In this document: positions 3,788 to 55,721 of the stretch, one piece after another
Numbering within the stretch: position 1 is the first letter of the stretch
Layout of the letters: each line of letters starts with the position of its first letter
Virus record (IMG/VR): IMGVR_UViG_3300006226_001702
Span: 11,064 to 75,063 of that record
Length of the DNA stretch: 64,000 nucleotides
Source of the DNA: a virus
Taxonomy: Duplodnaviria; Heunggongvirae; Uroviricota; Caudoviricetes
Reading direction: 5' to 3' (one strand)
Position numbers and translations under genes: made by a program
The notes under the pieces: model-generated
Database searches by the model: none
What the model was told of the DNA's origin: nothing
What the model saw: the letters and a program-made list of their open reading frames with translations, nothing else

Positions 3788-3808
3788 GATAATCTCTCCC
3801 TTATGATA

Positions 3809-3838
3809 ATATATAAGATAAGGGAGATTATCGTTCAA
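3809..3838 (-). promoter_or_regulatory. sigma70-like promoter TTGAAC-N17-TATATA (copy 1)
   Basis: Minus-strand TTGAACgataatctcccttatctTATATATT; exact 17-nt spacing; shares CTTATATA and TTGAAC with four other copies. Confidence 0.5.
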
Positions 3839-3843
3839 AATAT

Positions 3844-5925
3844 CTAAGTTCTAAATTTATTCACTTCTTTAGTGAGATTGTTGATTATATCCTTATTTTT
3901 GACACTAATATCATTGAGATGATTGATAGCCTCATTTATTTGAGCTGTTCCAGAAGCCATTTCATTCATTGACTCAGTTATCTCTTGTGACATTTTCTCT
4001 AAGTTTTCACTCTCTTTGATTACTTCAACAGCACCCTCATTCATTTCATTTGAGCCTCTCATAACTTCTCCAGTGACTCCTTGAATATGGGCTGTTGATT
4101 GTAACAATTGCTTGCTTCCAACTTCTTGTTCTTCCATTGAACATTTGATATTCTCTTCCTGTTCAGCAACAGTTTGCACGCTAGAATCTATCGTTTCAAA
4201 TTTGATTAAGACATCATCGGCTGATGAGTTTATTTCGTCAATGCTTTTCTTAATGTTCTTCAATACACTACTAATCGTTTTTGATTGTCCAGAAGATTCT
4301 TCAGCTAATTTACGAATCTCATTTGCAACTACAGCGAACCCCTTACCAGCATCTCCGGCATGAGCAGCTTCAATGGCGGCATTCATTGAGAGTAAGTTAG
4401 TTTGTGAAGCAATGTCTGCCATAACTTTATTGATATCCATTAAGCTTTCTGACTCTTTTAGAATCTCTTTAGCATCTTCAACAACCTTCTGTAAGCCTGT
4501 CTTACCAATTTCAGCTGCTTCTTTTAAGTCAGTTACATTCTTTGAGTTGTTCACTAATGATGTTGTAACTGAGCGAATGTTTGCAACCATCTGTTCGATA
4601 GCAGATGAAGATTGAGCAATATCATCACTTTGACTTTCAACATGAGCATTGAGCTTTTTGATGTTAGTCACGAGTTGGTCCATTGTGGCATGTGTTTGAG
4701 AAACTGATGCCGTTTGATTTATGACTCTGTCTTTTATGCTTGTGATATTTGCTGTTATTTCATTAACAGCTGCTGCACTTTCAGTCATATTAGAAGATAA
4801 ATCACTACCAACATTTGATAGTATCTCAGCTTCTTTCTTAATGATGTTAACTAAATTACGAATCTTACCTAAAGTTTTGTTGAAATAAACAGCTAAATCA
4901 GTAATTTCATCTTTGCCCTTTTCTTCAATTGATTTAGTTAAGTCGCCTTCACCTTCTGATATATCTTTTAATGTGTTGCTAACTTTTGTTAGCGGTCTAT
5001 TTATTGATAAACTGATTAGGATTGATAAGCCAACACCAACTATGAAACAGATTAAGCCAATAGTCAACACTAAAAACAATGCTGCATTTAATTCAGCATC
5101 AATTTCTGACTCTTCCATTGTTATGAATAATAACCAAGGTCTATCTGGAACTTCTGTGAATGCTACTTTATAATTTATGTTGTTCCAAACATAATAACCA
5201 AATCCTGATTCTTCTTGAATAGCCTTTTGCATCATTTCTGATATGCTTACAAAACTTTGATTAGTTCTAGCTTCTTCAAATATGTTAACTTGATTTAACA
5301 CATAATCATTATTTCTTGGATAAGCAATAAAAGTCCCTCTTGTATCAATCATGTAAGCATAACCACTTGGAAAACGGGTACCAATACCGCTAACTAAAAA
5401 TGAAATGTCTTCTCTAGCAACTAAAAGAGCTATGAGTTCAGTTCTCTCTTCATCAGCAAACACTGGAGCAACTAACATAACTACTGCATTGTTAGTTATT
5501 CGACTAATCAATACATTTGATATGAGCGGTTGCTTTGTTCTGTATGCTTCAATAATATAATCTCTATCACCTAAGTTACTAACAGCATCATCTGAAAGAT
5601 ATCTATAGGTTCCGTCTGGCCAAACCATACCGAGTTCTAAATAGCCAATTCTATCTCTATCGTGAATTAAACTGTGTTTAATCACATCATCCCATTCCAA
5701 AGTTCTCACTGATGGCCTTGACGCAATTTCAACTAAGATATTGAGTCGTCCATAGAGTTTTTCATTTATTAGTAAAGAATAAACATCTGTTCTAGTTTTT
5801 AGTTCTTCGAAATGGTATGATTGTATGCTTTTTCTTTTCGCATTTTGAACTGGGATAACTATGCTTAACGTAGTTAAGAAGATAATTATCCCAAACAAAA
5901 TGGGTATCTTAAACTTTAATTTCAT
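3844..5925 (-). CDS. methyl-accepting chemotaxis protein (Cache-like sensor, HAMP, MCP signalling domain)
   Basis: N-terminal TM helix, ~250-aa periplasmic region, second TM ([24 protein letters not shown]), HAMP segment, and canonical signalling hairpin [34 protein letters not shown]. Confidence 0.85.
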
Positions 5926-5954
5926 CTTACTTCCTTCTTGTTAAGTGAAAAAAT

Positions 5955-7331
5955 TTAGGCTGATTGCCCAATACAACCAGTCACCTTCCTTTTGCCGTAA
6001 TGTTTCACGGCCTCTATAATGTCTTGTTTTGATAAGCTATATTTTTTGAGTATCTTAAATGCTTTATTTAAAAGCCACACTACATCTTTGCGTTTCATTT
6101 CATATTCTTCAGATAGTTCGTCTACATCTTTATAGTTTTCTTTTATCCACCAATTTAGCATATTAGCTGGGTTCGGCTTGTTTGCTGGAATCCAAAATTC
6201 CTCATCTTCAAAAGCTGATGAAAGATGTGTTAAGAAGTCAGTCTCTTTTGGAGGTTCCGCAATGGCTTCGATTTCTCTTTCAGTTTCAGCCGCTGGGCTA
6301 CTACTCATCGCATTTAGATATGATGCAACTTTACTGTTGCCCAAATGTTGAATAGCAGTCATCAACTCTTGACCAGATATGTTATAGTCAGCAAGTTTCT
6401 TTTGAGCTGTATCCATTAAAGTTGCAGCTGAATTTCTTGAAATGCCAAACTTGGCACCCATAGCTCTAAACTCAGCTTTTGGATTTTCTATTATCTCGTG
6501 AAAGATATCTGCTGCTGTAACTCCTTTTGTGTCCTTTCTAAGTGCAGGATCTTGTACATAATTTTTCCATTTTTTTAGAAACTCTGTAGCATATAGATTA
6601 TCATCTACTTCCTTAAACGAATTTTCATAAGCTGCTTCGAATGTGTCATCTTTATAACCACGAGATGTGTGTGACATTGACTCATCATCCCATTCATTAT
6701 CATCAACATCACTATCATACCAAGTTGGTTCATACTGATGTACTTTAACTGATGCACTACCACCGGAAAGTTCCTTACCAGTAATGCCACCTGTGTCCTT
6801 TGACAAATTAGAATTCACAGCTGCATTCTTCAAAAGCATCTTATATTTATTAGCAAAAACTCCCATGATACTTTCTTCGGAGTTTTTACTGACATCAAAT
6901 CCACCAGTTCTTTCTCCGTCTTTATTAGTTGTACCAAAAAGAGCACTTGTTCCTTCTTTACTATTGAACTCATCGAAACCACCAGTGAGAACCATCCATG
7001 CTATTCCAAGCCATTGTTCCCATGCACTTTCATGTTGAATACGATAACGTCGCATTTCTCCTGATGGACCAAGATAATTTTTCCAGAATGCTTGCTGAAT
7101 AACAGGCTCCATTTTGTAGAAAAGATATTCTAAAGCACCCTTATCTTTCTTTTTTGCTGCTTCAAAAACCTCTTTATTACTCTTTCCAGCCCATTTATTT
7201 ATAGAAGAAGGCAAGACTATTTTAGCTACACTAAAATCTTTGGCAGTTTTATATCCTTCTAGTAGTTTTTGATGTCTAACTCGTTCTTTTATTTGAGTAA
7301 GCATCTGAAAATTAAGTTCGTCTAAGTTCAT
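5955..7331 (-). CDS. hypothetical protein, possible sigma-70-family-like regulator
   Basis: 458 aa; C-terminal LSEEYEMKRKDVVWLLNKAFKILKK resembles a sigma region 4.2 HTH; weak region-2-like segment; first gene of a minus block with the AACTAAATAATATG start context. Confidence 0.3.
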   Translation of the reverse strand: MNLDELNFQMLTQIKERVRHQKLLEGYKTAKDFSVAKIVLPSSINKWAGKSNKEVFEAAKKKDKGALEYLFYKMEPVIQQAFWKNYLGPSGEMRRYRIQHESAWEQWLGIAWMVLTGGFDEFNSKEGTSALFGTTNKDGERTGGFDVSKNSEESIMGVFANKYKMLLKNAAVNSNLSKDTGGITGKELSGGSASVKVHQYEPTWYDSDVDDNEWDDESMSHTSRGYKDDTFEAAYENSFKEVDDNLYATEFLKKWKNYVQDPALRKDTKGVTAADIFHEIIENPKAEFRAMGAKFGISRNSAATLMDTAQKKLADYNISGQELMTAIQHLGNSKVASYLNAMSSSPAAETEREIEAIAEPPKETDFLTHLSSAFEDEEFWIPANKPNPANMLNWWIKENYKDVDELSEEYEMKRKDVVWLLNKAFKILKKYSLSKQDIIEAVKHYGKRKVTGCIGQSA

Positions 7332-7372
7332 ATTATTTAGTTAAATTGATAACTAACTATTAAGGAATAATA

Positions 7373-7923: not shown

Positions 7924-10152
7924 ATGGCTAAGATAAAAGAATCACAATATGTCAGTAATGCTAAACCGCAATCCCAAATTTTTAAGTCAAGCTTCAATAA
8001 GAGATTGTCAAGCTTGTGGGGGTGGCAAGGTGTTAAGCGAAAAGATGCTCAAACTGAATTTGAAAGAGCTAATGGTTTACGTCTCGTTAAGGTAGACGTT
8101 GGTAATGATGCATATAGAGTTAAACATGCTGCTCTTGGAAGCATATTCAAATCAGCTCCGTTAGCAACAACACTCAATAAATACTTCAATGCTTATATAA
8201 ATGAAACTACACTCGTTTATTCTGATATTGCTGAAAGACAGCAACGGCTAAATGAATTACGATTCATGGTGCTTAATGACCCATTCGTATCTCGAGTTTG
8301 TCGTCTCGTTTCGGATGAAGCAACTCAATTAGATGACCAAAACAGATTACTTTCAGTAGAAAGCCCATCAATTCCATTCGTTAACAAATGTTATGAATTG
8401 TTTTCCCAGTGGGGTTTGACACAACAACGCATTTCATCTGCTTGTTATGATGTAGAACAATATGGTGAAGCGCTCTGGGCTCATAGAGTTACAGACAAAG
8501 GTGTTGAAAGAATCATCCCATTGAAAGTTCCAATGCTCAAAGAGAGATTAGAATTCTCAGCCGTTCACATGGCAGAAGTTGTAGCTCAAATGACTGGTGA
8601 ACAGGAAATGATGAAGAACAGAGATTCTAAAATTGGCAAATTAGTCGACTTACTAACGACAAAAGAAGGCAATGAAGCACTCTCTGATTTAGATGACAAT
8701 TTTGCTGATATGTTTGATACGAAACTATTAGGCTTCGAATTTGCAGATGGCATCATGGTTCCACCTTGGCTAATTACACACTTCCGCTATCAAGCTGATA
8801 ATAGTGAGTTTTTCCCTTATGGATATCCACCACTTTTAATGGCGTTAGCACCATTCAAACAATGTTACAGCACAATGGCACTCCAGGGATTAGCAAGAGC
8901 TTCTTCATTCCCAGTTCAAGTGTACAAAGTTAAGGGCACTGAAGGTGTTGGTGTTGCAACTGCTTTTGAAACTGTCAATAGTGTTCGTGAAGACTATGAG
9001 AATATTGGTGTATCTCCAATGACTAACTCTCTAGAAGTTTACACAGTCAACACAAAAGTTTGGGTGCCAGATGGTTTACTTCAAATGGAAATCATCGAAT
9101 CAAAAGTTGATATGGACTTTACTGGTGACTTAGAGTTGTACCAAGATAGAGTTGCAACAGCTTGTGGTGTTCCAAAAGGTTACCTTGACCAAGAGTTTGG
9201 CGGGTTTGGACAAAGTGGTATCGCACTCATGGAACAGTACAAACCATTTGCTAGACATGTATACACAATTCAGTCTGCTTTCCTTGAAGGGTTAGGCCAA
9301 CTTATCAGATTACATTTTGCTATTACTGGTGAATTTGACTATAATATGCCATTCGTTTTGAGCATGAGATTCCCCGCTGAAGATATGGGTGAAGAAAAAC
9401 GCGAAGCTAGATCATCTTCAGTTGAATTAGCAAACAGTATCATCGAATTGTTACAAGGTGTTTTAGGTATGGAAGAAGGCGAAGCTCTTCCAGAAGATGT
9501 TGTTGCTGATATTCTTAGCAAATACACCTTCTTAGACCCAACTGATTTACAACGCTGGTTACGACTTTCTGCTATCGCTAAAGCTGCAGCTGCAGCAGCC
9601 TCTGATGACGCCGATGCTGATGGTGAAGGCGGAGATGATATGGGTGGCGATGACATGGGCGGAGACGATATGGGTGGTGATGATATGGGAGATGATGGCG
9701 GTGAACCAATGCCTGAATCCATATCAGCTCATGAGCGCGCTTATTATCTACGAACTAAAAAACGATTAGCTGAAAACTTGAAAAGAGAAAAGCTAAAAGT
9801 CATAAAAGAAGCTAAATTAAGAAGACTAAAAGAGATAACTGAAAGATACAATGAATGCAAAAACGAAATCTATTTCAGTTGGTTAGCCGAACAAAATCTA
9901 ACTGAATGGCAAAAACCTGGCATATCACATGAGATGCTAATTCCAAAGATAAACACAGCTTCTCCATTATATGAAATGTTCCAAGTGTTAGCTGATAAAA
10001 CAACTCCAATTGGTAGCAGCGGTAGAGCTAGACTAAAAGAAATGTCAGTTCAAGACATGTTAAATGAAAAGAAAGACAATAACATGAACTTAGACCAAAT
10101 GTTGGCAACCCCATTACGTGAGATAAGTGATATAGTCAAGGACAACGAATAA
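7924..10152 (+). CDS. putative portal protein with acidic (GGDDM)n repeat
   Basis: 742-aa protein with no Walker A, upstream of other large virion-like ORFs; acidic repeat-containing C-terminus is common in portals; call rests on size and position only. Confidence 0.3.
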   Translation: MAKIKESQYVSNAKPQSQIFKSSFNKRLSSLWGWQGVKRKDAQTEFERANGLRLVKVDVGNDAYRVKHAALGSIFKSAPLATTLNKYFNAYINETTLVYSDIAERQQRLNELRFMVLNDPFVSRVCRLVSDEATQLDDQNRLLSVESPSIPFVNKCYELFSQWGLTQQRISSACYDVEQYGEALWAHRVTDKGVERIIPLKVPMLKERLEFSAVHMAEVVAQMTGEQEMMKNRDSKIGKLVDLLTTKEGNEALSDLDDNFADMFDTKLLGFEFADGIMVPPWLITHFRYQADNSEFFPYGYPPLLMALAPFKQCYSTMALQGLARASSFPVQVYKVKGTEGVGVATAFETVNSVREDYENIGVSPMTNSLEVYTVNTKVWVPDGLLQMEIIESKVDMDFTGDLELYQDRVATACGVPKGYLDQEFGGFGQSGIALMEQYKPFARHVYTIQSAFLEGLGQLIRLHFAITGEFDYNMPFVLSMRFPAEDMGEEKREARSSSVELANSIIELLQGVLGMEEGEALPEDVVADILSKYTFLDPTDLQRWLRLSAIAKAAAAAASDDADADGEGGDDMGGDDMGGDDMGGDDMGDDGGEPMPESISAHERAYYLRTKKRLAENLKREKLKVIKEAKLRRLKEITERYNECKNEIYFSWLAEQNLTEWQKPGISHEMLIPKINTASPLYEMFQVLADKTTPIGSSGRARLKEMSVQDMLNEKKDNNMNLDQMLATPLREISDIVKDNE
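9628..9702 (+). repeat. in-frame 15-bp tandem repeat x5 encoding GGDDM
   Basis: ggcggagatgatatg/ggtggcgatgacatg/ggcggagacgatatg/ggtggtgatgatatg/ggagatgatggcggt; units differ at synonymous positions. Confidence 0.8.
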
Positions 10153-12567: not shown

Positions 12568-12944
12568 AAACATTTGAACAAATATACCAATTAAGAGAAG
12601 ACAAAAAACCATTCGTTGGTGATTGTAGAGATTTAGAAGTGTCAAACAATTTACCATGGGAAGATACAACTGAATGTGCTAATGACTTAGGTTATTGGGC
12701 TAGAATGGATGAATATGATGGCAGTCCAGAAGATAGTAATTACGAAAAAATAACAAAAGAAGAATTTTGGGAAGCTTGCGAAAGACATAGAAACCCACAA
12801 TTTGATTGGGAAAGAAAAGCTAAAGATTACACAGATGACTGGGATGAATACATTGACGGAGATAAAATCTATCTCAAACGATATGACGGAAACATTTATC
12901 TAATTTATGATGAAAACGAAGACGTTCATTATTTTTGGTGGTAG
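12564..12944 (+). CDS. hypothetical protein (N-terminal MKTFEQIY motif)
   Basis: 126-aa ORF, ATGA-coupled to upstream gene. Confidence 0.5.
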   Translation: MKTFEQIYQLREDKKPFVGDCRDLEVSNNLPWEDTTECANDLGYWARMDEYDGSPEDSNYEKITKEEFWEACERHRNPQFDWERKAKDYTDDWDEYIDGDKIYLKRYDGNIYLIYDENEDVHYFWW

Positions 12945-12946
12945 TA

Positions 12947-14329
12947 ATGAAGTTATTTGAAGAAATCTACACTGGATATCGTGGAATGTCAGGTGGTAGT
13001 GATGAAGGCAAAAACTTCTGGGAGCCAGGAGAATTTGATAAGCTCACTTCAAAAAAATCAGTGGGAAAATGGTACTCATCAGACCCAGAAGTTGCTGAGT
13101 GGTACGGTGATGGGAAAGTTATTAAGAACACATTAGAATTTGACGACCCAATGATTGTTGATGCTGAAGGTTCTGACTATCACAACATACAAATTGATGG
13201 AAAAAGATACAATTCAGATAAACTATCTTTAATGGCTCATGAAGATGGCCATGATGGATTAGTTATAGAAAATGTTAAGGACCCAAAAATAGTTGCTGAT
13301 ACTTATGTTGCATTAAAACCTAACACAATTAAAGAGTCAAAATTATTTGAACAGATATATAGAAGCAGCAAATTGTACTATCACATCTCTCCAAATAAGT
13401 TTGACAAATTTGAAAGACGAAACTCTTTTAGAAAAGGAGATGGTGCTGAAGAGTTAGGTGGGACATTTTTAACTCCACAGCTTTATATGATTAATGCTTA
13501 TTTCGCTAATTATCTTTCAACTAAACATAAGAGAAAAGAATATTATCTATACTACTGCAAATTGAAAAAAGACTTAAACATCTTTAATCCATCATCTAAG
13601 AAAGATAGAACATTATTGATTGATAAAATTAGAGAAAATCCAAATCAGTTTTTCTTGAATTATTCTATTAAACAACCACGAGCTGTTCTTCCAGATTTGA
13701 AAAGAGAGTTAGCCTCAATGTTTCGCTCACATAATTGGTCTCAAATAGAAAATCCAGAACTTACTAAAATGATTAAGAGCCTTGGATTTGATGGCTATGT
13801 TTCTCAAGAAAATGAAGTGGGAAATATCATGGTGTTTGACCCAACTAATATTGAAATAGTTAGAAGCAAATCAATGAAAGCAGAAGACTTAAAAGATAGT
13901 TGGTCAGAAAAAGCTTTTTCTAAAGATGAGTACGAACAAATAAATGATAGATACAAATGGAAAGACGAAAAAGAAAATAGATGGGACTCAGTTGATGATA
14001 ATGAGTTCAACGACTTAAAATATACGACATCAGATATTTATGAGATAACTACAGACACTGACTTAGAACCATTCGATCTACTTTCTATGGTCGACAATGA
14101 TGGTAAAATAATCACTAACAAAATGAGAGACGTTTTAGACCCAGCGATTCATTATGCTAAAAAGTTTTTCTTTGACGGAAAAGAATTTGATAGCGTTAAC
14201 GAATTAGAAAAACATCTTGTCAAAACTTTTGGAAAAAGTGATAAGGAGTGGGGCGAAGTTTTCTCTGGAATGCTTGGCGAAGATGATGAAGACGAGCATG
14301 ACGCTGGTGATGGTGACTTAATCTTTTAA
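12947..14329 (+). CDS. hypothetical protein (two copies of LFE(E/Q)IY motif)
   Basis: Track ORF 12935..14329; start placed at MKLFEEIY to match the N-terminal motif pattern seen in paralogous contexts; internal second copy SKLFEQIYRSS. Confidence 0.5.
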   Translation: MKLFEEIYTGYRGMSGGSDEGKNFWEPGEFDKLTSKKSVGKWYSSDPEVAEWYGDGKVIKNTLEFDDPMIVDAEGSDYHNIQIDGKRYNSDKLSLMAHEDGHDGLVIENVKDPKIVADTYVALKPNTIKESKLFEQIYRSSKLYYHISPNKFDKFERRNSFRKGDGAEELGGTFLTPQLYMINAYFANYLSTKHKRKEYYLYYCKLKKDLNIFNPSSKKDRTLLIDKIRENPNQFFLNYSIKQPRAVLPDLKRELASMFRSHNWSQIENPELTKMIKSLGFDGYVSQENEVGNIMVFDPTNIEIVRSKSMKAEDLKDSWSEKAFSKDEYEQINDRYKWKDEKENRWDSVDDNEFNDLKYTTSDIYEITTDTDLEPFDLLSMVDNDGKIITNKMRDVLDPAIHYAKKFFFDGKEFDSVNELEKHLVKTFGKSDKEWGEVFSGMLGEDDEDEHDAGDGDLIF

Positions 14330-14765: not shown

Positions 14766-14810
14766 CTCTTATCTCCTCAGATAGTTTTTCCAACATACGC
14801 TGGATTTAAT

Positions 14811-14841
14811 AATATATAAGAACATTCAAACGAATGTTCAA
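14811..14841 (-). promoter_or_regulatory. sigma70-like promoter TTGAAC-N17-TATATA (copy 2) with palindromic operator-like spacer
   Basis: Minus-strand TTGAACattcgtttgaatgttctTATATATT; spacer contains perfect inverted repeat GAACATTC-aaac-GAATGTTC (14820..14839). Confidence 0.5.
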
Positions 14842-14848
14842 AATCTCC

Positions 14849-15176: not shown

Positions 15177-15196
15177 ATAACATCCTCCGTTATAAT

Positions 15197-15227
15197 AATA
15201 TATAAGAAGAATTAGAATAGTGTTCAA
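15197..15227 (-). promoter_or_regulatory. sigma70-like promoter TTGAAC-N17-TATATA (copy 3)
   Basis: Minus-strand TTGAACactattctaattcttctTATATATT. Confidence 0.5.
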
Positions 15228-15230
15228 AAT

Positions 15231-15674: not shown

Positions 15675-16086
15675 TTTCTTCCTTCAATTTGTTAATAACT
15701 TCTAATAAAATCTCTGGGTGCACTTTTTCATAAAAAGTTTGTTGCTTTAAAAAGTCACAAGCTTCTTCATATGTAAAAGTGTAAGGTTGATTATTTAGAA
15801 ATTCATACAGTTTCTCAAACGGCATGTAATTGTACTTACATAACTCAGAGGCTGCTTTAATCCTCAATTTACAATTTTCATTTTTAGTTAACTCAAATAT
15901 GCTCTGTTCTCTCTCAATAAATTTGTAAGCCATATCTGAAATTAACATAGTTTCGGATAATCTTGGTCCCCCATATTGCTCACACATTTTGATGATATCT
16001 TTTAATGCTTTGCCATATTCTTCAAAGTTATTACGATGAGAATTCAAAAGTGAGGCTTCTCTAAGTTTTAAGTCTTTTAATGTCAT
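15601..16086 (-). CDS. hypothetical protein
   Basis: 161-aa ORF; first gene of minus block with AACTAAATAATATG start context; 3' end overlaps the GNAT ORF by 74 nt. Confidence 0.45.
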   Translation of the reverse strand: MTLKDLKLREASLLNSHRNNFEEYGKALKDIIKMCEQYGGPRLSETMLISDMAYKFIEREQSIFELTKNENCKLRIKAASELCKYNYMPFEKLYEFLNNQPYTFTYEEACDFLKQQTFYEKVHPEILLEVINKLKEENEVREDSSDGHRTEVLGEGTPANI

Positions 16087-16111
16087 ATTATTTAGTTTTC
16101 TACTAACTATT

Positions 16112-18840: not shown

Positions 18841-19725
18841 TCATTTTGGTATCAAGTTCCTATATTCTAAATTTGTCCCATGTTTTTTATTCCATTTTTC
18901 TAATTCAGTAGTTATATCATATTGCTCAATGTTTATTTCAACTCCATGATCATAATAATGTTCTGGATTATCCAAATCAGCTTCAACAACATCAATGTAC
19001 ATTCTTAAATCAAAATATGGTTCCCTATGTTCCAATGAAAGTTGATTTAACAGAGCATATATAACATCTTTTTCTGGTTTATAAACATAAAGAGACAAAC
19101 TATCATGAACATAATTATAGATTCTACTTTGGAATTCCCATTCAACTAATAAGTTATTCATAGCAGTAACATCTGGCATCGCTTGAAATACTTCAGCCGT
19201 TTGAATAGTTGTGTTACTTGCTTCATTCTTCATTCCAGAAAACATTTTGGAATAAAGTTTGACATCTACACCAACTAGATTATCTCTTGCATTTCTTTTT
19301 AGATAACGAAACTCTGGAAAGTGACGAACTGGCCCACTCCAAGTTCGAGCATAACCATGTTTCATCGCAAATTTTTGTTCTCTAGTTACACGCTCTAATA
19401 ATCCAGGATAAGTTTGAAAGAATAAATCTCTTAATTTATTTCCAACAATCATATACTTTAATTCAGCAATACTTTTTCCTTTTGTGTTTCCATAAATTGC
19501 ATTATCCAAAGCAGGTTTCAACTTAAATGTGTCAATAGTTAAATCACAATCATGTTCCGAGAACCCAGCCTGTTTCATTTGACGTCCAAGAGTTGGACCT
19601 GTGCAAGCAAATATTGTTGATAAGTTAACTGTCTTTCCATCAAATCTCATTTTCTTAAATGGAGGAAAACCTTTTAAGACTAGAAAATCTTGTAATGTTA
19701 TTTCTCGTTTCGTTATTTTATACAT
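18841..19725 (-). CDS. DNA polymerase I family, C-terminal fragment (motif C region)
   Basis: YNYVHDSLSLYV resembles PolA motif C (VHDE); overlaps the upstream pol ORF by ATGTATAA. Confidence 0.55.
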   Translation of the reverse strand: MYKITKREITLQDFLVLKGFPPFKKMRFDGKTVNLSTIFACTGPTLGRQMKQAGFSEHDCDLTIDTFKLKPALDNAIYGNTKGKSIAELKYMIVGNKLRDLFFQTYPGLLERVTREQKFAMKHGYARTWSGPVRHFPEFRYLKRNARDNLVGVDVKLYSKMFSGMKNEASNTTIQTAEVFQAMPDVTAMNNLLVEWEFQSRIYNYVHDSLSLYVYKPEKDVIYALLNQLSLEHREPYFDLRMYIDVVEADLDNPEHYYDHGVEINIEQYDITTELEKWNKKHGTNLEYRNLIPK

Positions 19726-21802
19726 AATCTAAAAATATGTCCTCTTCAGTAAATTCTTTTCCCTTGATAACAAGTTCTTTTTCATCATCAACTAATCCTA
19801 ATCTCTTAATCTTTATTTTCTGCTCTTCACCAAAGATAATCTTTTTTCCATTATCATCTTCAATTTCAATAACTTGCATATGAATTGGTGCACAGAATAC
19901 TCCATGAGTTGTCATTGAGTGAGCATCTTGACAACCATCGGGTCCATAAATATCATAAGCAATTTTATCAACACCATTTGGGTTTATTCCACAATCACAA
20001 AAAGCTAAGATTAACTGAAGTGACCTAAAGTCGGCATTGACTAATAGCCAATCAGATTTAGATTCTCCGACTAAATCATCTTCAATTACATTTGGTGGAA
20101 CTGTGAATAATCTTTTTATGTATGGAGCAATTTCACCACGAGATGGAATCTGTTGGAAGTTTGGATCATTCATTGCATGTCTAAATGATTCAGTACCGAA
20201 TGTGTTACAGTTTGGATGAATTCTCCAAGTTCCATCTGGATGTTCGAATAACCATTTTTTCCAACCTTCAATAAATGTTCCTAATGCTACATTATATGAA
20301 CGAAGTTTCTTTAACTCTTTTATTCCAGGTTTATTTAATAATTCATATTCAGTTAAAACGTCATCAGATGTTTTATAGCCTCCATCTTTTGCTTCGGCTA
20401 TTTTTTCCCAACCCATATCCTTAAATAATTGTCCAAGTTTTTTAGTTGATTCAAACTCAAAAGTTTCTTGAACACCCCATTCAACTGCTAATTTCTTTTT
20501 TAAGTCAACTATTTTTTCTTTAATTGCTTTTTCAGAGATATCAAATTGGTCTTTATTTACATAAACACCTTTATATTCAACATCAGTTACAACATTAGCA
20601 TTTGGAATCATTACTTCTTTATAGAATTTTTTAATTGTCCAAGTTGGGTCTTTTTCATTTGGATATTTTTTATCTAATTTTTCTACATGTTTATCTAAAG
20701 CCTTTTGTAATCTCCAAGTTACTATTGGGTCAAGGCCTGCATATTTATGTAAAATATCTTTTGGAATTTGTAGATAATTTTCGACTTTTAATCTCTTTTT
20801 TGCTAAATCTAATTCATGTTCATAACCAGTAAACTTTCCACAATAAAATATTGCACCAGATTTTAAGCTCTTCGAACGATTTGAATTAAGAGCATGAGAT
20901 AATAAAACTGTGTCATCAGTTGGTAACCAGCCAGTTACACCATTTCTCCAAATAAACTTTGTATCAAATTTTGCATTTGCTAAAGTCAATCTTTTTGCTG
21001 ACATTAAAACTTTTTTTAATAATCTTTTATCAACATTTTCCCAATCAAAAACATACCCAGTTTCACCATCATTAGATAAACTTAAAACACCAAGTCTATC
21101 TTTTAAGAATGATAATCCACTCGTTTCAGTATCTGCTGCTAATAAAACAGAGTTCTCTAAAAGTTTTAGATATCTTGATGAATCTTGTTTATCCTCAGCA
21201 TAAATTATTTTATAATCTCTCATGTCAAGATTTTTAGTTGACATATCATCTTTTTGAATACGAGCTAATTTGTCATAAAAAAATCTAGTGAGAAAATTAG
21301 TTGGGTCATTACTTAAATCAATTGGGTATAAATCTCTAATTGGAGCAACTGGATAAACCCATCTGTCTGGGCCATTAATGAATTCTTTTCCACACCAATA
21401 TCTTGGTTCATTAAAAACATCATCTAAAAAATCATAATAATTTACATCACCAGATTTATTTAAGACACGAAGTGCTGGGCCGAATGCAATTACACACTCA
21501 CATTCAGTTCCATCAAATGTTAGATATTGTCGCCAATTACTTTCTAAAGATAAGAGTTCTTCTGTTGAATCATTTTTTGGATCTTTTACTGATATTACAG
21601 AAACGATGTTATATGATTTGATGCCATATCTATCAATATCTTTACAAAGAATGTCAAGATAAACTTTATGTAGAATATTATCAACCAAGAATAAAAAATA
21701 TTTATGTCCTGGTTGATAATTTTCTTTTAATAAAGCATCAAATTTCTCTAAGTTTTGTTTTGGTCTTTCGCTTGCACGAACATTACCGAATTGAAATGCC
21801 AT
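19718..21802 (-). CDS. DNA polymerase I family, N-terminal fragment (3'-5' exonuclease + motif A)
   Basis: Exo I motif LLAADTETSGL; PolA motif A analogue NADFRSLQL (cf. DYSQIELR / T7 DASGLELR). Confidence 0.7.
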   Translation of the reverse strand: MAFQFGNVRASERPKQNLEKFDALLKENYQPGHKYFLFLVDNILHKVYLDILCKDIDRYGIKSYNIVSVISVKDPKNDSTEELLSLESNWRQYLTFDGTECECVIAFGPALRVLNKSGDVNYYDFLDDVFNEPRYWCGKEFINGPDRWVYPVAPIRDLYPIDLSNDPTNFLTRFFYDKLARIQKDDMSTKNLDMRDYKIIYAEDKQDSSRYLKLLENSVLLAADTETSGLSFLKDRLGVLSLSNDGETGYVFDWENVDKRLLKKVLMSAKRLTLANAKFDTKFIWRNGVTGWLPTDDTVLLSHALNSNRSKSLKSGAIFYCGKFTGYEHELDLAKKRLKVENYLQIPKDILHKYAGLDPIVTWRLQKALDKHVEKLDKKYPNEKDPTWTIKKFYKEVMIPNANVVTDVEYKGVYVNKDQFDISEKAIKEKIVDLKKKLAVEWGVQETFEFESTKKLGQLFKDMGWEKIAEAKDGGYKTSDDVLTEYELLNKPGIKELKKLRSYNVALGTFIEGWKKWLFEHPDGTWRIHPNCNTFGTESFRHAMNDPNFQQIPSRGEIAPYIKRLFTVPPNVIEDDLVGESKSDWLLVNADFRSLQLILAFCDCGINPNGVDKIAYDIYGPDGCQDAHSMTTHGVFCAPIHMQVIEIEDDNGKKIIFGEEQKIKIKRLGLVDDEKELVIKGKEFTEEDIFLDYV

Positions 21803-24661: not shown

Positions 24662-25036
24662 TTAGCAATCTCTTGTACCAGTTATAATCTCAATTGCAGG
24701 TGGATCATAACCAGTTATTTCCATTACCTTTTGAAGTGCTTCTGAACAACCAATGTCTTGTAGATCCGTATGGGTGAACTCTAAAAAGTCATCTCCTTCA
24801 GTAATGCATTCCCCCACGACATATAGATTATTTTCATAATCTTCCCAAACCCATATCTCATCATGAATCTTTTCTAAGAGTTCATAAAAATCAAAATCTT
24901 CATCATCAAATTCAATATTATTGTCTTTCGCATATTTCTTGAATTTGTCTAAATCATCACCTTTTCCAATTCTAAATCCTGCAACTACAAATGATGAAGT
25001 TGAACTATTGCTGACAAATCCATGTCTGATTTTCAT
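24662..25036 (-). CDS. MKIRxGFVSNSSSSSF-family protein (member 1, acidic)
   Basis: N-terminus MKIRHGFVSNSSTSSFVVAG, then divergent acidic body. Confidence 0.6.
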   Translation of the reverse strand: MKIRHGFVSNSSTSSFVVAGFRIGKGDDLDKFKKYAKDNNIEFDDEDFDFYELLEKIHDEIWVWEDYENNLYVVGECITEGDDFLEFTHTDLQDIGCSEALQKVMEITGYDPPAIEIITGTRDC

Positions 25037-30401: not shown

Positions 30402-30761
30402 TTAAGAGGGATAAGTTTCCTCATGATAATCAAATTTGTCTTCGGATATATTAACTTTAGTTTTGGCGTTTATTTCATCCCTAATTTGCTTCTTAAAGTC
30501 ACCCATAGTTTGGTCATCAGCACATTCTGATAGTGACTCACCAAAATAATAGCCGTCCCACATTTCACTTGGGCCATAATAAGACAAACCAATGGCTTCT
30601 ACTTTTTCCCAAATTTCATCTTCATCATAATCTTCATCGTCTGGGTCAGAAACACAATCAATGCCAAAGTGTTTGATAACTTCTTCTTCTTCGAGATAAA
30701 CACCATAAATTAAGAATGAAGAGCTGCTACTATTACTTACGAATCCATTTCTAATCTTCAT
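30402..30761 (-). CDS. MKIRxGFVSNSSSSSF-family protein (member 2)
   Basis: MKIRNGFVSNSSSSSFLIYG then acidic divergent body. Confidence 0.6.
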   Translation of the reverse strand: MKIRNGFVSNSSSSSFLIYGVYLEEEEVIKHFGIDCVSDPDDEDYDEDEIWEKVEAIGLSYYGPSEMWDGYYFGESLSECADDQTMGDFKKQIRDEINAKTKVNISEDKFDYHEETYPS

Positions 30762-30912: not shown

Positions 30913-31419
30913 TTAGTTGTACTCCACTCTAATATGTGAGTCTGGGCTATAAAGCCAGTTTCTCAAAGTTTCAGCACTCTCAAAGATTTCCTTACCAAGA
31001 TTTTCTGCTGAATTATGACCGAAGAAACTATCAACATAAACACACATTGGGTCCATATAAGCATATTGTGTGCTTCCGTTATCCCATCTAAAGTTGATCT
31101 TGACATCATCAAATTCTTCAAAATCTTCCAGTAAAGTTTCTTCTAACAATGAAGTGTAATGAAAGTTTGACATATCAGAACCCTCAGGTCCTTCCTTCAT
31201 GTAACACAACATTGCAGCGGCATTCAATCTTTCTTCAAATGAGTTGTACTTTTCTTGAGTGCTATCAAATTCATAATTTCCGCCAAAAGTTTGGGGAATC
31301 ATTAGCGTATCATTTCTCATATAAGCACGATGTATCACTGGCTGTTTCCATTCTTCTTTTCCAATTATGAGAAAAGAGCTTGATGATGAATTACTGACAA
31401 ATCCATTTCTAATTTTCAT
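30913..31419 (-). CDS. MKIRxGFVSNSSSSSF-family protein (member 3)
   Basis: MKIRNGFVSNSSSSSFLIIG; body shares PxTFGG..F....Y..F..RLN segment with member at 49750..50478. Confidence 0.6.
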   Translation of the reverse strand: MKIRNGFVSNSSSSSFLIIGKEEWKQPVIHRAYMRNDTLMIPQTFGGNYEFDSTQEKYNSFEERLNAAAMLCYMKEGPEGSDMSNFHYTSLLEETLLEDFEEFDDVKINFRWDNGSTQYAYMDPMCVYVDSFFGHNSAENLGKEIFESAETLRNWLYSPDSHIRVEYN

Positions 31420-35026: not shown

Positions 35027-35053
35027 ATTATCTCCCTTAATCTCGTTATAATG

Positions 35054-35083
35054 TTATATAAGATCGTTTAGAGAGCTGTTCAA
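35054..35083 (-). promoter_or_regulatory. sigma70-like promoter TTGAAC-N17-TATATA (copy 4)
   Basis: Minus-strand TTGAACagctctctaaacgatctTATATAAC. Confidence 0.5.
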
Positions 35084-35174
35084 AATCTTAGAATTGTCCA
35101 AAGTTAGTTAGAACTATGTTAGATATAAATATCTTGACCTATGAAAACTCTTTCATGTTTAAAGATAAATTTAG

Positions 35175-35786
35175 CTATGAAAGAAAAGCGGGTGGTCGAG
35201 CTAACTTTTCTAATAAGTTATTGTCTCGATCAAATTTTAAGTGTATGTATTTTCTGCTTGCTAAATAGTCTGCTAAATGTAACATTTGTTCATCGAATTC
35301 TTGTGGTGTGGGAGTATTACCTGATTTGTCTCTTGCTGCGTCCCATCTTCCCATGTGGCTTGCGCATAATCTTGCTTCTTCAGATAGACCAACTTCATCT
35401 AATTTGTCGGCTATATCTTTGGCATGATGTTTTGATGTATATTCACTTTCATCAGTTGCATATTTGTAAGCATCATGAGCAATTGCTGCAATTACGAGTG
35501 AGTCTTGATTTAGTTGTGGGAATGCATCACATATCGTCATTACGAATTTGACTACAGCTTTAGTGTGTCGTGATAGACCAAAATCTCCTTGTGAGTATTC
35601 TGGGTGGTATTTTCCAGTAGAAGAAGCTTGACCTGCAATATTTTTATATGCAGCTGTTCTCAAAACGTTCTCTAATTTTGCTCTTTTTTCTTTTGATTGA
35701 ATTAAGTCTAATTCTTTCATGTAAATTTTAACATTTGGTGACTCAAGCATGAGTGCTTCTTCATAGATTCTCTGGAACGTTTTCAT
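35175..35786 (-). CDS. HD-domain phosphohydrolase (paralog A)
   Basis: SSTGKYHPEY...LSRHTKAV...AAIAHDAYKY (H, HD, D metal ligands); N-terminal MKTFQRIY. Confidence 0.65.
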   Translation of the reverse strand: MKTFQRIYEEALMLESPNVKIYMKELDLIQSKEKRAKLENVLRTAAYKNIAGQASSTGKYHPEYSQGDFGLSRHTKAVVKFVMTICDAFPQLNQDSLVIAAIAHDAYKYATDESEYTSKHHAKDIADKLDEVGLSEEARLCASHMGRWDAARDKSGNTPTPQEFDEQMLHLADYLASRKYIHLKFDRDNNLLEKLARPPAFLS

Positions 35787-47704: not shown

Positions 47705-48292
47705 TTAGTCCACAATTATTTGGTTCAAATCATCGAACTTAATTGTGATTACCTTTTTAGCACAAAGATAATCAGCATATGCAACAATATAGTGCTCGGG
47801 TTTAGTGGGTGGCTTGCCTAACTCTTTTCCATTCTTATCAGTGTGCCAACGACTCATGTGCGTGTCAACTATATCGGCTATCAATGGCCAATAAATAGAA
47901 TCAGCAAACTTGCTTCTAATAGCATCACCCATCATAATAGCATGTTCATTGTGAATGTACTTCTGATCTTTTTCAGTGTACTTTTTCATATCGTGAAGAA
48001 GAGCACCAATGTAAATGATGTCCCATTCTATGTCATTGTCATACTTTGGGTCTTGCTGTAACATTAGTTCAGTCAATTTACAAACGGCTCTCGTGTGTCT
48101 TAAAAGACCACCCACCCCGTTTGACCAAGGTGGGTGATATTTCCCGCTGCTACTTGCCGGCGCATCACAAATGTAATCAGAACATTCCATTAGAAGTGCT
48201 TTACAATCGATGCGTAGATATTCTGTTTTGATTTTTTCAATTTCAGTCTTAAAACAGTTTAGTATTCTTCTTCCCATAAGTCTGGATGGCAA
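47705..48292 (-). CDS. HD-domain phosphohydrolase (paralog B), candidate RNA 3'-end healing enzyme
   Basis: SSSGKYHPPWS...LLRHTRAV...ALLHDMKKY; paralogous to 35175..35786. Confidence 0.65.
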   Translation of the reverse strand: MPSRLMGRRILNCFKTEIEKIKTEYLRIDCKALLMECSDYICDAPASSSGKYHPPWSNGVGGLLRHTRAVCKLTELMLQQDPKYDNDIEWDIIYIGALLHDMKKYTEKDQKYIHNEHAIMMGDAIRSKFADSIYWPLIADIVDTHMSRWHTDKNGKELGKPPTKPEHYIVAYADYLCAKKVITIKFDDLNQIIVD

Positions 48293-48591
48293 CCAATTGG
48301 TCCGTCATTTGTAGATAATTCTTGATCTTCAAATGGGAAGACACCATTTCTTGCCGCTATCTCCTTCTCGCTTCTCAACTTCATCCAAGTTGGTTTTGGT
48401 GCAATCACTTTGAAACAACATATTGGTACGTTGTTCAAATGGAGATATTCAGCTGCTGCTCTATAATCCTCAGGAAAACGAGATACATATATTTGATAGT
48501 TCAACCTAACGTCTTCTGAGAAATAAAAATATACAATTTCATCTGCGTATTCTAGGTAAACAGACTCTTCATTAAGTCGTTCTATAATCAT
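48259..48591 (-). CDS. hypothetical protein
   Basis: 110-aa ORF within the RNA-repair operon. Confidence 0.4.
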   Translation of the reverse strand: MIIERLNEESVYLEYADEIVYFYFSEDVRLNYQIYVSRFPEDYRAAAEYLHLNNVPICCFKVIAPKPTWMKLRSEKEIAARNGVFPFEDQELSTNDGPIGCHPDLWEEEY

Positions 48592-48618
48592 TTTAGGCTC
48601 CTATTCATTTAGTTCAAT

Positions 48619-49131
48619 TTACCTATTTACGTTAATGAAATCAATCAGCTTTTCTATATCTCCATCATATTTATGATACACCAAATCACTATTTTCAATT
48701 CTATCAATACAGTTGTGATATTTAATGAACTTATTCTCGATGATACTATCAGTCAAAGCTGATCTATCCTTTCCCTTTTCTAAATCAGTTGCTACGCGCT
48801 TCTGACAAAGCTTCAAATCTTTACTGTCTTCCATTAAGATGAAAATGACTTTACATGGAAAAATCGCTTTGTATCTAACGAGATTCTTAAACGATATATT
48901 CATCGCATTAAAGTACACTGTCTTATCATCGATGATAGCATCTAAAGCTCTTTCCTCAGCAATCTTGAATATCTTATGTCCGTCACGCTGTTCATTCACA
49001 TCACCGAAAACTTCTCTTCTAATATCGTCTGGTTCTATATTAACGAGATCGTCTAATCGTTTTTCCAACTGCTCTTTTAAGTGGCTTTTCCCACTACCAG
49101 GAATTCCCACAGTCATAACTACTAATGCCAT
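48619..49131 (-). CDS. polynucleotide 5'-kinase (T4 Pnk kinase-domain-like P-loop protein)
   Basis: MTVGIPGSGKSHL...IEPDDIRREV parallels the T4 Pnk N-terminus LTIGCPGSGKST...NINRDDYRQS; no DxDGT phosphatase domain. Confidence 0.6.
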   Translation of the reverse strand: MALVVMTVGIPGSGKSHLKEQLEKRLDDLVNIEPDDIRREVFGDVNEQRDGHKIFKIAEERALDAIIDDKTVYFNAMNISFKNLVRYKAIFPCKVIFILMEDSKDLKLCQKRVATDLEKGKDRSALTDSIIENKFIKYHNCIDRIENSDLVYHKYDGDIEKLIDFINVNR

Positions 49132-49799
49132 TTATCTACTCCACTAACATATACTTCGTTCTTTTCCCATTTTTTAGTCCAATGCTCATCCGTTTGAACA
49201 TGATTAGCTCTAACGTACTTAGCGATATTTTCATCCCAATCAGCTTCAAGAAACTCATCGGCATTTCTTAACACATAACCTTCATGATGCTCTTCATTAA
49301 ATGCATCTTTCCAAACTCTTTCAGGCAAACCTCTTGGCATTGCGCTATTTAGAATAACAGGCACAGTTTCCAAATTAAGCAATTCACACCATTCCATCGT
49401 TTCTTCCCAAGATAGAACGCCAAACTTATCCGTAATCATAAACACTTGAAATAGCGGAACATGAGAATATCTAATCGAATGACAGGCATACAAGTTTTCA
49501 CCAATGATTCTCATTTCAGGTGGAATGTTACAGAACAATTTTCTCGCTATGTAATTGATGTCCCGTCTCCATTTGGCTGATTGATCACTGTCTAAACTTC
49601 GAGCATGAACGTAATCATAACCAATTACAGTGCATTCTCCATCCATTTTTTCAGTCATTAGAATTGGCCCAGAAGGACAGAAGATGTCATTCTTTCTATC
49701 ATCTTTAGTCAATCCCTTCGAGTTCGGTAAGTGTCCAATGCGAGGAAACTTACGCTTGTACTTTAGTGCTATCTCCGAGGAAGTTTCCGTCTTCATCAA
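49122..49799 (-). CDS. ATP-dependent RNA ligase (Rnl2/Rnl5-like adenylyltransferase domain)
   Basis: Motif I TEKMDGE (KxDG) and motif IV HHEGYVLR. Confidence 0.6.
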   Translation of the reverse strand: MMKTETSSEIALKYKRKFPRIGHLPNSKGLTKDDRKNDIFCPSGPILMTEKMDGECTVIGYDYVHARSLDSDQSAKWRRDINYIARKLFCNIPPEMRIIGENLYACHSIRYSHVPLFQVFMITDKFGVLSWEETMEWCELLNLETVPVILNSAMPRGLPERVWKDAFNEEHHEGYVLRNADEFLEADWDENIAKYVRANHVQTDEHWTKKWEKNEVYVSGVDKWH

Positions 49800-50478
49800 A
49801 CTTTTCAGGATTATCCCACCTGCTCCAATATAAGTCTACATATTTTCCATCATCATCTTGTAAATCGTATGAATAGTCCATGCGATGATCCACTTCTAAT
49901 TCGTCGGCATCACCATACTCATCAGAACGATTTGCAACATAATTTCCTTCACCAAATAACCAATGGAAAATTGAGTCATTGTCTTCAAAAATCATCCAGT
50001 AATTATCAGTTCTATCAAACCACTGTGACTGATGATCGATATGCCCGCTCATTTTGGCCTTATTCATTGAATAGTTTTCTTCAGTTAAAAGCCAATTGAT
50101 GTTAGTCACATTTGGAATGTTGTCTTTAATCACAGTTTCAAGCATCAATACTTCATCAACATCTCTGTCATAAATCTTTCTAACATCATCACTCATATTC
50201 TTAACGAAGTCTTTATGAAAATCAGCAGCTTTATTTATCCTAACTCTTTGAAGTCTTTCCGCTAAAAGCCAAGCAAAGTTTAGTCGGCTACCGAAGTCTT
50301 TGTAGTTTTCTCGCTGCCTACCAAAATCAACCTCACCACCAAATGTGAAAGGCACATATAAAGTGCTTGGGTCTTTATACATCTTTGGCATGTGAGGAAT
50401 TACATAAATACCTTCTCCACCAAAAACGAGAAACGAACTACTTGAACTGTTACTAACGAAACCTGCTCTAACTTTCAT
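49750..50478 (-). CDS. MKIRxGFVSNSSSSSF-family protein (member 4, 242 aa)
   Basis: MKVRAGFVSNSSSSSFLVFG; body homologous to member 3 over the TFGG..F...Y..F..RLN segment; acidic C-terminus. Confidence 0.6.
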   Translation of the reverse strand: MKVRAGFVSNSSSSSFLVFGGEGIYVIPHMPKMYKDPSTLYVPFTFGGEVDFGRQRENYKDFGSRLNFAWLLAERLQRVRINKAADFHKDFVKNMSDDVRKIYDRDVDEVLMLETVIKDNIPNVTNINWLLTEENYSMNKAKMSGHIDHQSQWFDRTDNYWMIFEDNDSIFHWLFGEGNYVANRSDEYGDADELEVDHRMDYSYDLQDDDGKYVDLYWSRWDNPEKFDEDGNFLGDSTKVQA

Positions 50479-51157: not shown

Positions 51158-51567
51158 AATTTGATTTCAATATTCTTGTCTTTGAACTCTTTTGGCATAG
51201 CAGTTCTCAATGCGCCTTCAATTCTGCCGCCACCATCACCACCATCTTTAATCGTAACTTCATGCACAAACTTCCAGTTGTCAAAGAATGGCTTCCAAAT
51301 TGCTTCGCATTCCTCAGTTAGTCCTTCACTCCACCAGTTGTTCTTGACATGAACTAAAAAGCTATTCCAATCAGGCCAAGTGTTGTGGTCCTCAAGTTCA
51401 TAAACGGCGTATCGTCTAAGCTCTCTGATGAGCATACGAGCCGCACCATGTGCTGGAAAGATCTCTTCCCAGTTGTCTTCAATCGTTTGCTCAAATGAGC
51501 TACAATTTGAACCAACTATAAACGAGCTGCTTGAACTGTTACTAACAAAACTTGTCCTAATCTTCAT
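51148..51567 (-). CDS. MKIRxGFVSNSSSSSF-family protein (member 5)
   Basis: Start set at MKIRTSFVSNSSSSSFIVG; stop of the upstream member lies 2 nt before this ATG. Confidence 0.6.
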   Translation of the reverse strand: MKIRTSFVSNSSSSSFIVGSNCSSFEQTIEDNWEEIFPAHGAARMLIRELRRYAVYELEDHNTWPDWNSFLVHVKNNWWSEGLTEECEAIWKPFFDNWKFVHEVTIKDGGDGGGRIEGALRTAMPKEFKDKNIEIKFWN

Positions 51568-55696: not shown

Positions 55697-55721
55697 ATTT
55701 TAGCTCCCTTAAAAGTGATAG

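Follow-up and report, generated by a model that had tools for sequence, protein, structure and literature searches.

A methyl-accepting chemotaxis protein gene carried by an uncultivated, probable jumbo phage, and its possible role in the taxis of infected spirochetes

A methyl-accepting chemotaxis protein (MCP) is encoded on the minus strand of a 64,000-nucleotide stretch of tailed-phage DNA (Caudoviricetes) that spans positions 11,064 to 75,063 of the IMG/VR virus record IMGVR_UViG_3300006226_001702 and is hereafter called the window. An earlier note on this DNA had described the gene product as a complete MCP with two transmembrane (TM) helices, a Cache-like periplasmic sensor, a HAMP domain and a signalling hairpin, and this description is borne out for the 693-residue open reading frame (ORF) by Pfam, hydropathy and AlphaFold2 (AF2) modelling (Table 1). 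The protein matches MCPsignal (PF00015) over residues 465-618 at 107.7 bits (cut-off 34.6) and HAMP at 44.3 bits (cut-off 25); dCache_1 is matched over residues 48-268 at 40.7 bits, slightly below its cut-off of 45, and PF02743 is listed in the precomputed annotation of a protein identical to it (P0001). The topology is that of class I receptors, with two TM segments flanking the sensor and followed by HAMP; the hydrophobic stretches of the hydropathy profile cover residues 2-29 and 275-312. The signalling domain matches the Tsr and TM1143 chains. The window MCP is an ordinary member of its family.

The arms of the signalling hairpin comprise 169 residues from the end of HAMP to the tip residue D525 and 168 residues after it, or approximately 24 heptads on either side, and the domain is collinear with those of Treponema MCPs, without gaps and with equal arm lengths; receptor length class was judged from this alignment and from the arm lengths. 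When 19 MCPs were aligned (alignment A1), residues 505-541, the predicted CheA/CheW-binding tip, proved variable only at A506, D525, A526 and N535. Each arm carries one methylation-consensus site, both being motif matches only: at the N-arm site S440, A442, I443, E444, M446 and A448 are invariant or at least 90% conserved in A1, and at the C-arm site M597 is invariant while E599 and Q600 are at least 90% conserved.

By its fold the sensor is of the dCache_1 class and is not a four-helix bundle, the two options that the earlier note had named. AF2 modelling of residues 25-285 with 62 homologues (mean pLDDT 95.3, the predicted local distance difference score) produced a long N-terminal helix followed by two PAS-like modules, the double-PDC or dCache arrangement. 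Its best PDB matches in Foldseek are Mlp24, Mlp37, Tlp3 and PctA, with E-values of about 1e-12 and TM-scores of 0.6-0.75; KinD is matched by Foldseek too, and both PctA and KinD by profile search. All of the sensor residues that are invariant in the family (D96, R97, Y99, P130 and W240, counted along the fragment of residues 25-285; alignment A4) are kept, which argues that the domain may still bind the ligand of its cellular family. The AA_motif of the amino-acid-binding group dCache_1AA consists of Y121, R126, W128, Y144 and D173 in PctA numbering (PMC8915833). In the window sensor, where the aligned stretches include ISNVLISR and AREDI, the corresponding residues are S, R and Y, with no Tyr and an uncertain Asp; the motif is not kept, and an amino-acid ligand is therefore not predicted. 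The amino-acid receptors Mlp24 and Mlp37 of Vibrio cholerae, PctA of Pseudomonas aeruginosa and Tlp3 of Campylobacter jejuni resemble the window sensor in their double-PDC fold, but identity to them is only 15-19% and their amino-acid motif is absent from it.

Reading along the minus strand, a conserved phage gene for a 458-residue protein is followed after 29 nt by the MCP gene and then at once by a copy of a sigma70-like promoter motif. The window holds this motif, (A)GATTTTGAAC-N17-TATATATTAT, in five copies (repeat families D2 and D3), every one of them on the minus strand; it is probably a phage promoter class read by host RNA polymerase. The earlier note had reported a promoter copy directly after the MCP, and the copy is real; its placement suggests that it serves the genes downstream and not the MCP. 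In an MCP-less relative (L035/L036, contigs of 328 and 261 kb, portal 77% identical) the motif directly follows the stop codon of the homologous 455-residue gene, and because this site is empty the window MCP can be recognised as an insertion between the 458-residue gene and the promoter. The same slot in another relative, L005, holds a TAGT-like glycosyltransferase.

Within the 29-nt spacer upstream of the MCP there is no promoter motif and no significant hairpin; a terminator between the two genes was considered and rejected, since its hairpin is no better than those of shuffled sequences (z -0.38). With no promoter motif upstream and a hairpin at chance level, the simplest reading is that the MCP would be co-transcribed with the 458-residue gene. 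A stem-loop just beyond the MCP stop codon takes in the promoter spacer as well as the ribosome-binding site of the small ORF that follows; it may mark the 3' end or act as an insulator. At three divergent gene pairs with very short intergenic regions (385-409, 7318-7342 and 16073-16097), AATAGTTAGT...AACTAAATAATATG stands immediately before a minus-strand start codon, with no Shine-Dalgarno sequence; one of them precedes the 458-residue gene that heads the presumed MCP transcription unit, and these could be a second promoter class or leaderless starts.

The 458-residue protein itself contains two stretches that look like helix-turn-helix (HTH) segments (GISRNSAATL... and KDVVWLLNKAFKILKKY). 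Its reading as a sigma or HTH factor was rejected as a by-eye impression, there being no Pfam match and, as the best PDB profile match, an HTH regulator at E 0.12. That faint similarity, together with the MCP directly following this conserved gene, is the indirect evidence for the idea that the receptor works for the phage itself, reporting a cue such as that for lysis timing through host CheY-P or a phage partner. The 458-residue gene is also present in MCP-less relatives and so is not a dedicated partner; moreover, the window yielded no gene for a response regulator, a CheW-like protein or a kinase that could take part, and we know of no pathway by which a chemoreceptor reports to a phage. 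We consider a phage-directed sensor very unlikely.

Table 1. Features of the chemoreceptor locus and of related elements (positions in the window)
Feature	Position	Strand	Basis
Sigma70-like promoter motif copy	3796..3841	-	TTGAAC 3833-3838, 17-nt spacer, TATATA 3810-3815; begins at MCP stop codon
Motif copies (A)GATTTTGAAC-N17-TATATATTATTATAACGGAG	3796-3841, 14800-14846, 15185-15230, 35041-35086, 56630-56675	-	ahead of minus-strand gene blocks; also L035:3740-3770
15-bp stem-loop just 3' of MCP stop	3788..3832	-	RNA fold -17.4 kcal/mol, z -2.47; single palindrome occurrence in window
MCP gene (methyl-accepting chemotaxis protein)	3844..5925	-	intact ATG-to-stop ORF, 693 aa; Pfam MCPsignal, HAMP, dCache_1
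Cytoplasmic signalling hairpin, residues 357-693, 24 heptads each side of tip D525	3847..4857	-	collinear with Treponema MCPs
Methylation-consensus site SMEEQEVG, residues 596-603, C-arm	4117..4140	-	motif [ASTG]xx[EQ][EQ]xx[ASTG]
Hairpin tip, predicted CheA/CheW-binding region, residues 505-541	4303..4413	-	invariant columns of alignment A1
Methylation-consensus site SAIEQMVA, residues 441-448, N-arm	4582..4605	-	motif [ASTG]xx[EQ][EQ]xx[ASTG]
HAMP domain, residues 304-356	4858..5016	-	Pfam PF00672, 44.3 bits
TM2, about residues 283-305	5011..5079	-	hydropathy
Periplasmic dCache_1 ligand-binding domain, residues 28-282	5080..5844	-	AF2, Foldseek PDB matches, profile matches
TM1, about residues 7-27	5845..5907	-	Kyte-Doolittle hydropathy; aligns with N-terminal TM of Treponema MCPs
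29-nt spacer, 458-aa gene to MCP	5926..5954	-	Shine-Dalgarno-like AAGGAAG 7 nt before ATG
Conserved 458-aa phage gene, directly upstream of MCP	5955..7331	-	in relatives with and without MCP
Portal protein, 742 aa, 2 kb from MCP	7924..10152	+	Pfam Portal_T4 on homologues; AF2 fold search

The surroundings of the locus are those of a tailed phage. The nearby 742-residue ORF has no PDB match by sequence, either as a single sequence or as a profile; its identification as a portal protein comes from homologues 48-54% identical to it, which exceed the Pfam Portal_T4 threshold, and from an AF2 model (pLDDT 59.5) whose top 50 PDB matches are all tailed-phage portals, with T4 gp20 first (E 8e-9). One segment of the portal gene (9628-9697) is modelled with low confidence and differs in length among homologues. 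Elsewhere the window encodes a DNA methylase (N6/N4), a family-A DNA polymerase in two parts, ThyX next to a homing endonuclease, a DNA ligase that is ATP-dependent, a pair of RNA ligases accompanied by a polynucleotide kinase, a PD-(D/E)XK exonuclease, HD proteins, Hsp20, an SPFH protein and a radical-SAM protein, besides weak tail-like matches and three tRNAs. Most of the large window ORFs have no Pfam or PHROG assignment, a 695-residue ORF has no PDB sequence match, and neither a major capsid protein nor a terminase was recognised by Pfam or PHROGs among the window ORFs; these may lie outside the window or be too divergent.

No cellular housekeeping gene (ribosomal, metabolic or other), integrase or att site was found in the window. 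The MCP locus, junctions included, recurs at 100% identity in two other metagenome assemblies, from ENA (50,743 bp) and JGI (11,937 bp); the source samples are ENA ERZ27257348 and JGI 3300002469. The ENA contig runs 11 kb further to the left, where the 6 kb that were read hold phage-type genes including GIY-YIG and 5'-3' exonuclease genes, and the contiguous sequence documented for this phage amounts to at least 75 kb. Phage genes flank the MCP on both sides for tens of kilobases, and these flanks are phage, not host. The earlier note had placed the MCP among phage genes, as the portal 2 kb away, the phage-type window genes and synteny with viral contigs confirm; its further suggestion that the window might be partly host-derived is rejected, no att site, integrase or housekeeping gene having been found and the same junctions being present in the two other assemblies.

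Strong synteny extends to IMG/VR contigs of 329,018 and 108,437 bp, and portal homologues occur on contigs of 213-375 kb. The relatives' contigs measure 329,018, 329,032, 328,413, 334,541 and 374,982 bp; one relative was assembled separately at 329,018 and 329,032 bp, and such near-equal lengths suggest a complete genome of approximately 329 kb. From its relatives, the genome of the window phage is probably about 330 kb. The nearest isolated phages show about 25% identity in the polymerase, megablast of window positions 1-25000 against GenBank phages gave no match, and a metagenome scan with the 458-residue protein returned three loci only. The window phage belongs to an uncultivated jumbo-phage clade within the Caudoviricetes. 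Portals about 52% identical are found on L032 (JAZNWZ010000130.1, 306 kb), in a 'Candidatus Fimenecus' metagenome-assembled genome (MAG), and on L033 (JAITXV010000065.1), in an Acholeplasmatales MAG; the clade reaches other gut bacteria and gets binned into bacterial MAGs. These portal relatives in Clostridia and Acholeplasmatales MAGs were set aside as a clue to the host, being distant and uninformative about that of the window phage.

There is a very small probability that the MCP is not phage-borne, that is, that it belongs to a host chromosome, a plasmid or a chimeric phage-host assembly. Such an origin would accord with the unrecognised capsid and terminase, and many of the 'viral' MCP matches in IMG/VR are probably host genes beside prophages (L010, L011 and L013, discussed below). 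It is countered by the portal gene at 2 kb, by junctions identical in three independent assemblies, by at least 75 kb of contiguous sequence free of housekeeping genes and uniform in composition and codon usage, and by synteny to viral contigs of about 329 kb recovered at near-equal length in separate assemblies.

The protein has its best non-identical homologues among MCPs of Treponema MAGs, which are of the same size and at most 55% identical over the full length. Closest among cellular proteins is P0002 (MAG GCA_009777735.1, contig WRLF01000009.1), whose gene neighbours encode S15, PNPase and LptF/G. The two proteins (693 and 695 residues; 55% identity over the full length) agree in domain order, tip, methylation motifs and the family-invariant sensor residues D96-R97-x-Y99. 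Where they differ is in genomic setting: the Treponema genes stand among housekeeping genes and have a third-position GC content (GC3) of about 0.47, whereas the window gene stands in a phage with a GC3 of 0.256. In base composition the window MCP (GC 0.340, GC3 0.256) is as AT-rich as its neighbours (means of 0.353 and 0.269 over 63 window genes), as the earlier note had stated, and the comparison of codon usage gave the same answer, relative synonymous codon usage showing a correlation of 0.93 to the remaining window genes and of 0.01 to the genes of the Treponema contig. Since composition and codon usage are those of the phage, the acquisition would be old, not recent, and the homologies point to the lineage of the phage's host as the source.

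Related phages carry chemoreceptors of their own. A scan of viral contigs with a single query found no match, its patterns being drawn from variable stretches, but a query built from the alignment succeeded, and the homologue search as a whole recovered, besides the Treponema MAG MCPs, receptors in the related phages L004, L027, L031, L014 and L016. The 329-kb relative L004 (IMGVR_UViG_3300010167_000010) encodes a 606-residue MCP, P0121 (L004:966-2786), with sCache_3_3 / Cache_3-Cache_2, HAMP and MCPsignal domains. Its gene lies between the 5'-3' exonuclease and the methylase, a site occupied by GIY-YIG in the window phage and by nothing in L035. The two phages belong to one clade (portal 77% identical) and their MCPs share signalling-domain type, C-arm and tip; the sensors and insertion sites differ, and the 50% identity between the proteins begins only at TM2. 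In the signalling domain the window MCP is up to 67% identical to cellular MCPs as against 55% to P0121, whose closest cellular relatives are other Treponema MCPs, including those of Treponema primitia and Pillotina sp. These identities, and likewise the different sensor, site and cellular relatives, point to separate acquisitions of the two genes. The trees in this analysis are neighbour-joining ones, built from a sample of homologues. Treponema primitia and Pillotina are termite-gut spirochetes, and a termite-gut origin of the phage is presumed from this and from the names of the homologues.

An sCache MCP is found at the same position as P0121 in L027 and L031, contigs from other samples, and the L027 protein (P0123) is 78% identical to P0121. 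Between the L004 and L027 genes the ratio of nonsynonymous to synonymous substitution rates (dN/dS) is 0.19 overall, falling to 0.10 for the cytoplasmic part and rising to 0.38 for the sensor, values that are approximate because dS is high (0.8); the sequences indicate that the sCache MCP has been under purifying selection while in phage genomes. Two further types occur more distantly: L014, which shares a 1531-residue protein with the window, has an MCP with a polytopic N-terminus, and L016, which shares the polymerase, one with an unrecognised periplasmic domain. Common to the four phage MCP types are a C-arm of exactly 168 residues and the tip motif QTNLL[SA]...[KR]GFAVVA.EIRKLA, and each type matches the GC content of its own phage. 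Not all candidates were accepted. Treponema-type MCPs (35-59% identity) on the IMG/VR contigs L010, L011 and L013 were rejected as uncertain, the gene being at the contig edge beyond lambda-like tail genes in L010 and L011 and beside an integrase in L013; most likely they are host genes that border prophages, and hits of this sort bring false 'viral chemotaxis genes' into surveys.

Other host-like cargo occupies the same variable regions in relatives (L005:1134-2417, L005:5613-6422, L035:14264-15322 and L037:17255-18135): an MFS_2 sugar transporter, a TAGT-like glycosyltransferase, an SBP_bac_1 extracellular solute-binding protein, and Macro with RNase H. Seen alongside the MCPs, such cargo suggests that genes for envelope sensing and uptake are a recurring theme.

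Such variability invites the explanation that the MCP is a passenger, a host gene brought by illegitimate recombination into a variable cargo slot, with no selected function or one confined to some undescribed carrier state. The slot does vary, being filled in relatives by the glycosyltransferase or by small ORFs, or left empty; several close relatives lack an MCP in the vicinity of the portal; and no promoter of its own was found. Against this, the gene is wholly phage-like in codon usage and GC3, a state that requires long residence, the ORF is intact with every invariant residue present, the sister-lineage MCP has held its position across three metagenomes at the dN/dS given above (0.19), and MCPs were acquired several times in the clade. 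We judge the passenger explanation unlikely.

The explanation that we favour, with about even confidence, is that of a working, phage-encoded receptor that shifts the taxis of the infected spirochete. Neither CheA, CheW, CheY, CheR nor CheB was found among the window ORFs scanned, and for want of these genes the phage MCP could signal only through host proteins. Chemoreceptors that agree in length class and in tip sequence are mixed within a single array. Spirochaetia possess an F2 system with CheW and a CheW-CheR-like protein (PMC7666581). An uncultivated large phage of lytic type, infecting Treponema-like spirochetes, would have taken the MCP from the host lineage long ago. During infection the gene would probably be transcribed as the last of a two-gene unit with the 458-residue gene, and its product would insert in the inner membrane, where a tip that is host-like at all but four positions and arms of equal length would let it join the polar CheA/CheW arrays of the host. 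There the periplasmic dCache domain would add or amplify sensitivity to one small-molecule ligand, and the swimming of the infected cell might be biased toward or away from a niche in such a manner as to raise phage yield or to place progeny among new hosts. The earlier note had proposed reprogramming of taxis through the host's CheA/CheW arrays, and this proposal fits the tip, the length, the methylation motifs, the lack of che genes in the window, the selection seen in sister phages and the recurrence of MCPs in the clade; expression, incorporation into arrays, the ligand and the effect on taxis are the parts that we infer, and the interpretation given in that note is, overall, partly supported.

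Several observations weigh against a working receptor of this kind. Among columns at least 90% conserved in 77 cellular homologues, the window MCP deviates at 25 of 196, compared with a cellular mean of 7.6 (sd 6.3), or at about three times more columns than the typical cellular homologue, and this excess may reflect a relaxed or altered constraint. The tip contains none of these 25 deviations, and most of them are conservative changes or losses of Gly, the latter being the change expected under AT pressure. In addition, the sensor lacks the dCache_1AA motif; the gene has no direct promoter, the repeated motif sitting downstream of it and not upstream; the window MCP is known as identical copies only, the dN/dS estimates coming from the sister-phage MCP; and the Treponema-like host is suggested by MCP homology only. 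Finally, in several close relatives the 10 kb to either side of the portal gene are free of MCPs, and from this absence the receptor is accessory and dispensable for the phage.

The same divergence bears on a further alternative, that of an array jammer, in which the phage product would take a place in host arrays but work there in a dominant-negative or kinase-locking way, and motility would be abolished or fixed, for example to save energy or to hold the cell in place, with no guidance along gradients. A fit of tip and length to host arrays would serve this function equally, the extra divergence at conserved columns includes several Gly substitutions in helices, and no phage adaptation enzymes were found in the window. 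Yet the family-invariant sensor residues are retained, purifying selection acts on the sensor of the MCP in the sister phage (dN/dS 0.38), the methylation sites are kept, and four different sensor modules in related phages are hard to explain if sensing is irrelevant. Jamming seems to us improbable.

Viral MCPs have been noticed before. They are listed as auxiliary genes on viral scaffolds of Desulfovibrio vulgaris in a study according to which only one earlier report of such viral genes existed (PMC9448743), and CheR, CheY and MCP are described from phages of ammonia oxidisers (bioRxiv 10.64898/2026.05.02.722434). Those cases resemble ours in their viral sequence, in their Cache-type sensors and in the proposed role of helping the host to sense substrates, but they were recognised in silico on viral or proviral scaffolds of Proteobacteria, without analysis of insertion site, selection or recurrence; the carrier here is a clade of spirochete jumbo phages, with a portal gene near the MCP and several independent MCP types. 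The uncharacterised family phrog_8572 matches the signalling region of the window MCP (E 6e-44), a distant similarity, and an ORF of Vibrio phage vB_VmeM-Yong XC31 annotated as hypothetical (QAX96201.1) is 28% identical to it over residues 244-580; such MCP-like ORFs of jumbo phages, from Vibrio, differ from the window MCP in sensor and host. The jumbo-phage reviews and surveys checked make no mention of chemotaxis or of MCP-like ORFs. Viral motA/motB genes from glacier-ice viruses (PMC8290583) embody the same idea of host motility or taxis genes as viral auxiliary genes, although these are stator proteins and not sensors, from another host and environment. The window case is therefore one of a rare kind already seen in metagenomic surveys, and unusually well supported; what is new is the defined insertion, the adaptation to the phage, the purifying selection and the repeated uptake, by one clade, of receptors with different sensors.

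Other features of the window are recorded here in their own right. An ART-PolyVal domain is encoded at 12935-14329 (+), and one ORF has an LPD3 domain; ART-PolyVal (the ADP-ribosyltransferase of polyvalent proteins) and LPD3 typically occur in proteins that large phages and plasmids inject along with their DNA. The family-A polymerase is split between 18841-19725 and 19718-21802 (-), which overlap by 8 nt and encode 294 residues and 694 residues (exonuclease and part of the polymerase); in a relative (L035:19996-22262) small ORFs lie between the two halves. A set resembling RNA repair (47705-49799 and 35175-35786) comprises two RNA ligase domains, an AAA_33 protein similar to polynucleotide kinase and two phrog_5889 paralogues, lies near tRNA-Gln and tRNA-Pro (54994-55067 and 55721-55794), and may counter host anticodon nucleases. 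Eight minus-strand ORFs share a 5' end of about 59 nt encoding MKIRNGFVSNSSSSSF and form a paralogous family with divergent remainders; these shared ends are at 24978-25036, 30703-30761, 31361-31419, 50420-50478, 51509-51567, 51894-51952, 52301-52359 and 52594-52652, five of them in tandem between 50.4 and 52.7 kb, and phrog_7397 matches the first 19 residues only.

Phage auxiliary genes are for the most part regarded as boosters of metabolism. If our explanation is true, a sensor feeding into host navigation would be a manipulation of a different kind, namely behavioural control of the infected cell. The locus is among the cleanest cases, combining an unambiguous phage carrier, an empty-site relative, an adapted gene and the recurrence within the clade of receptors that all suit a single type of host array. 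For surveys of viral genes it supplies a criterion, the separation of MCPs that are truly inside phage genomes from host MCPs that flank prophages, and its 255-residue sensor domain is testable material for ligand work. More tentatively, and with rather less than even confidence, we suggest that the approximately 330-kb phages of gut spirochetes pilot infected cells by means of interchangeable chemoreceptor cargo, whose sensor modules, at least four in number (dCache_1, sCache_3, a membrane domain that is polytopic and an unrecognised periplasmic domain), are mounted on one host-compatible scaffold. Were this so, it would be the virus and not the bacterium that picks the gradient followed by the infected cell during the long latent period of a jumbo phage.

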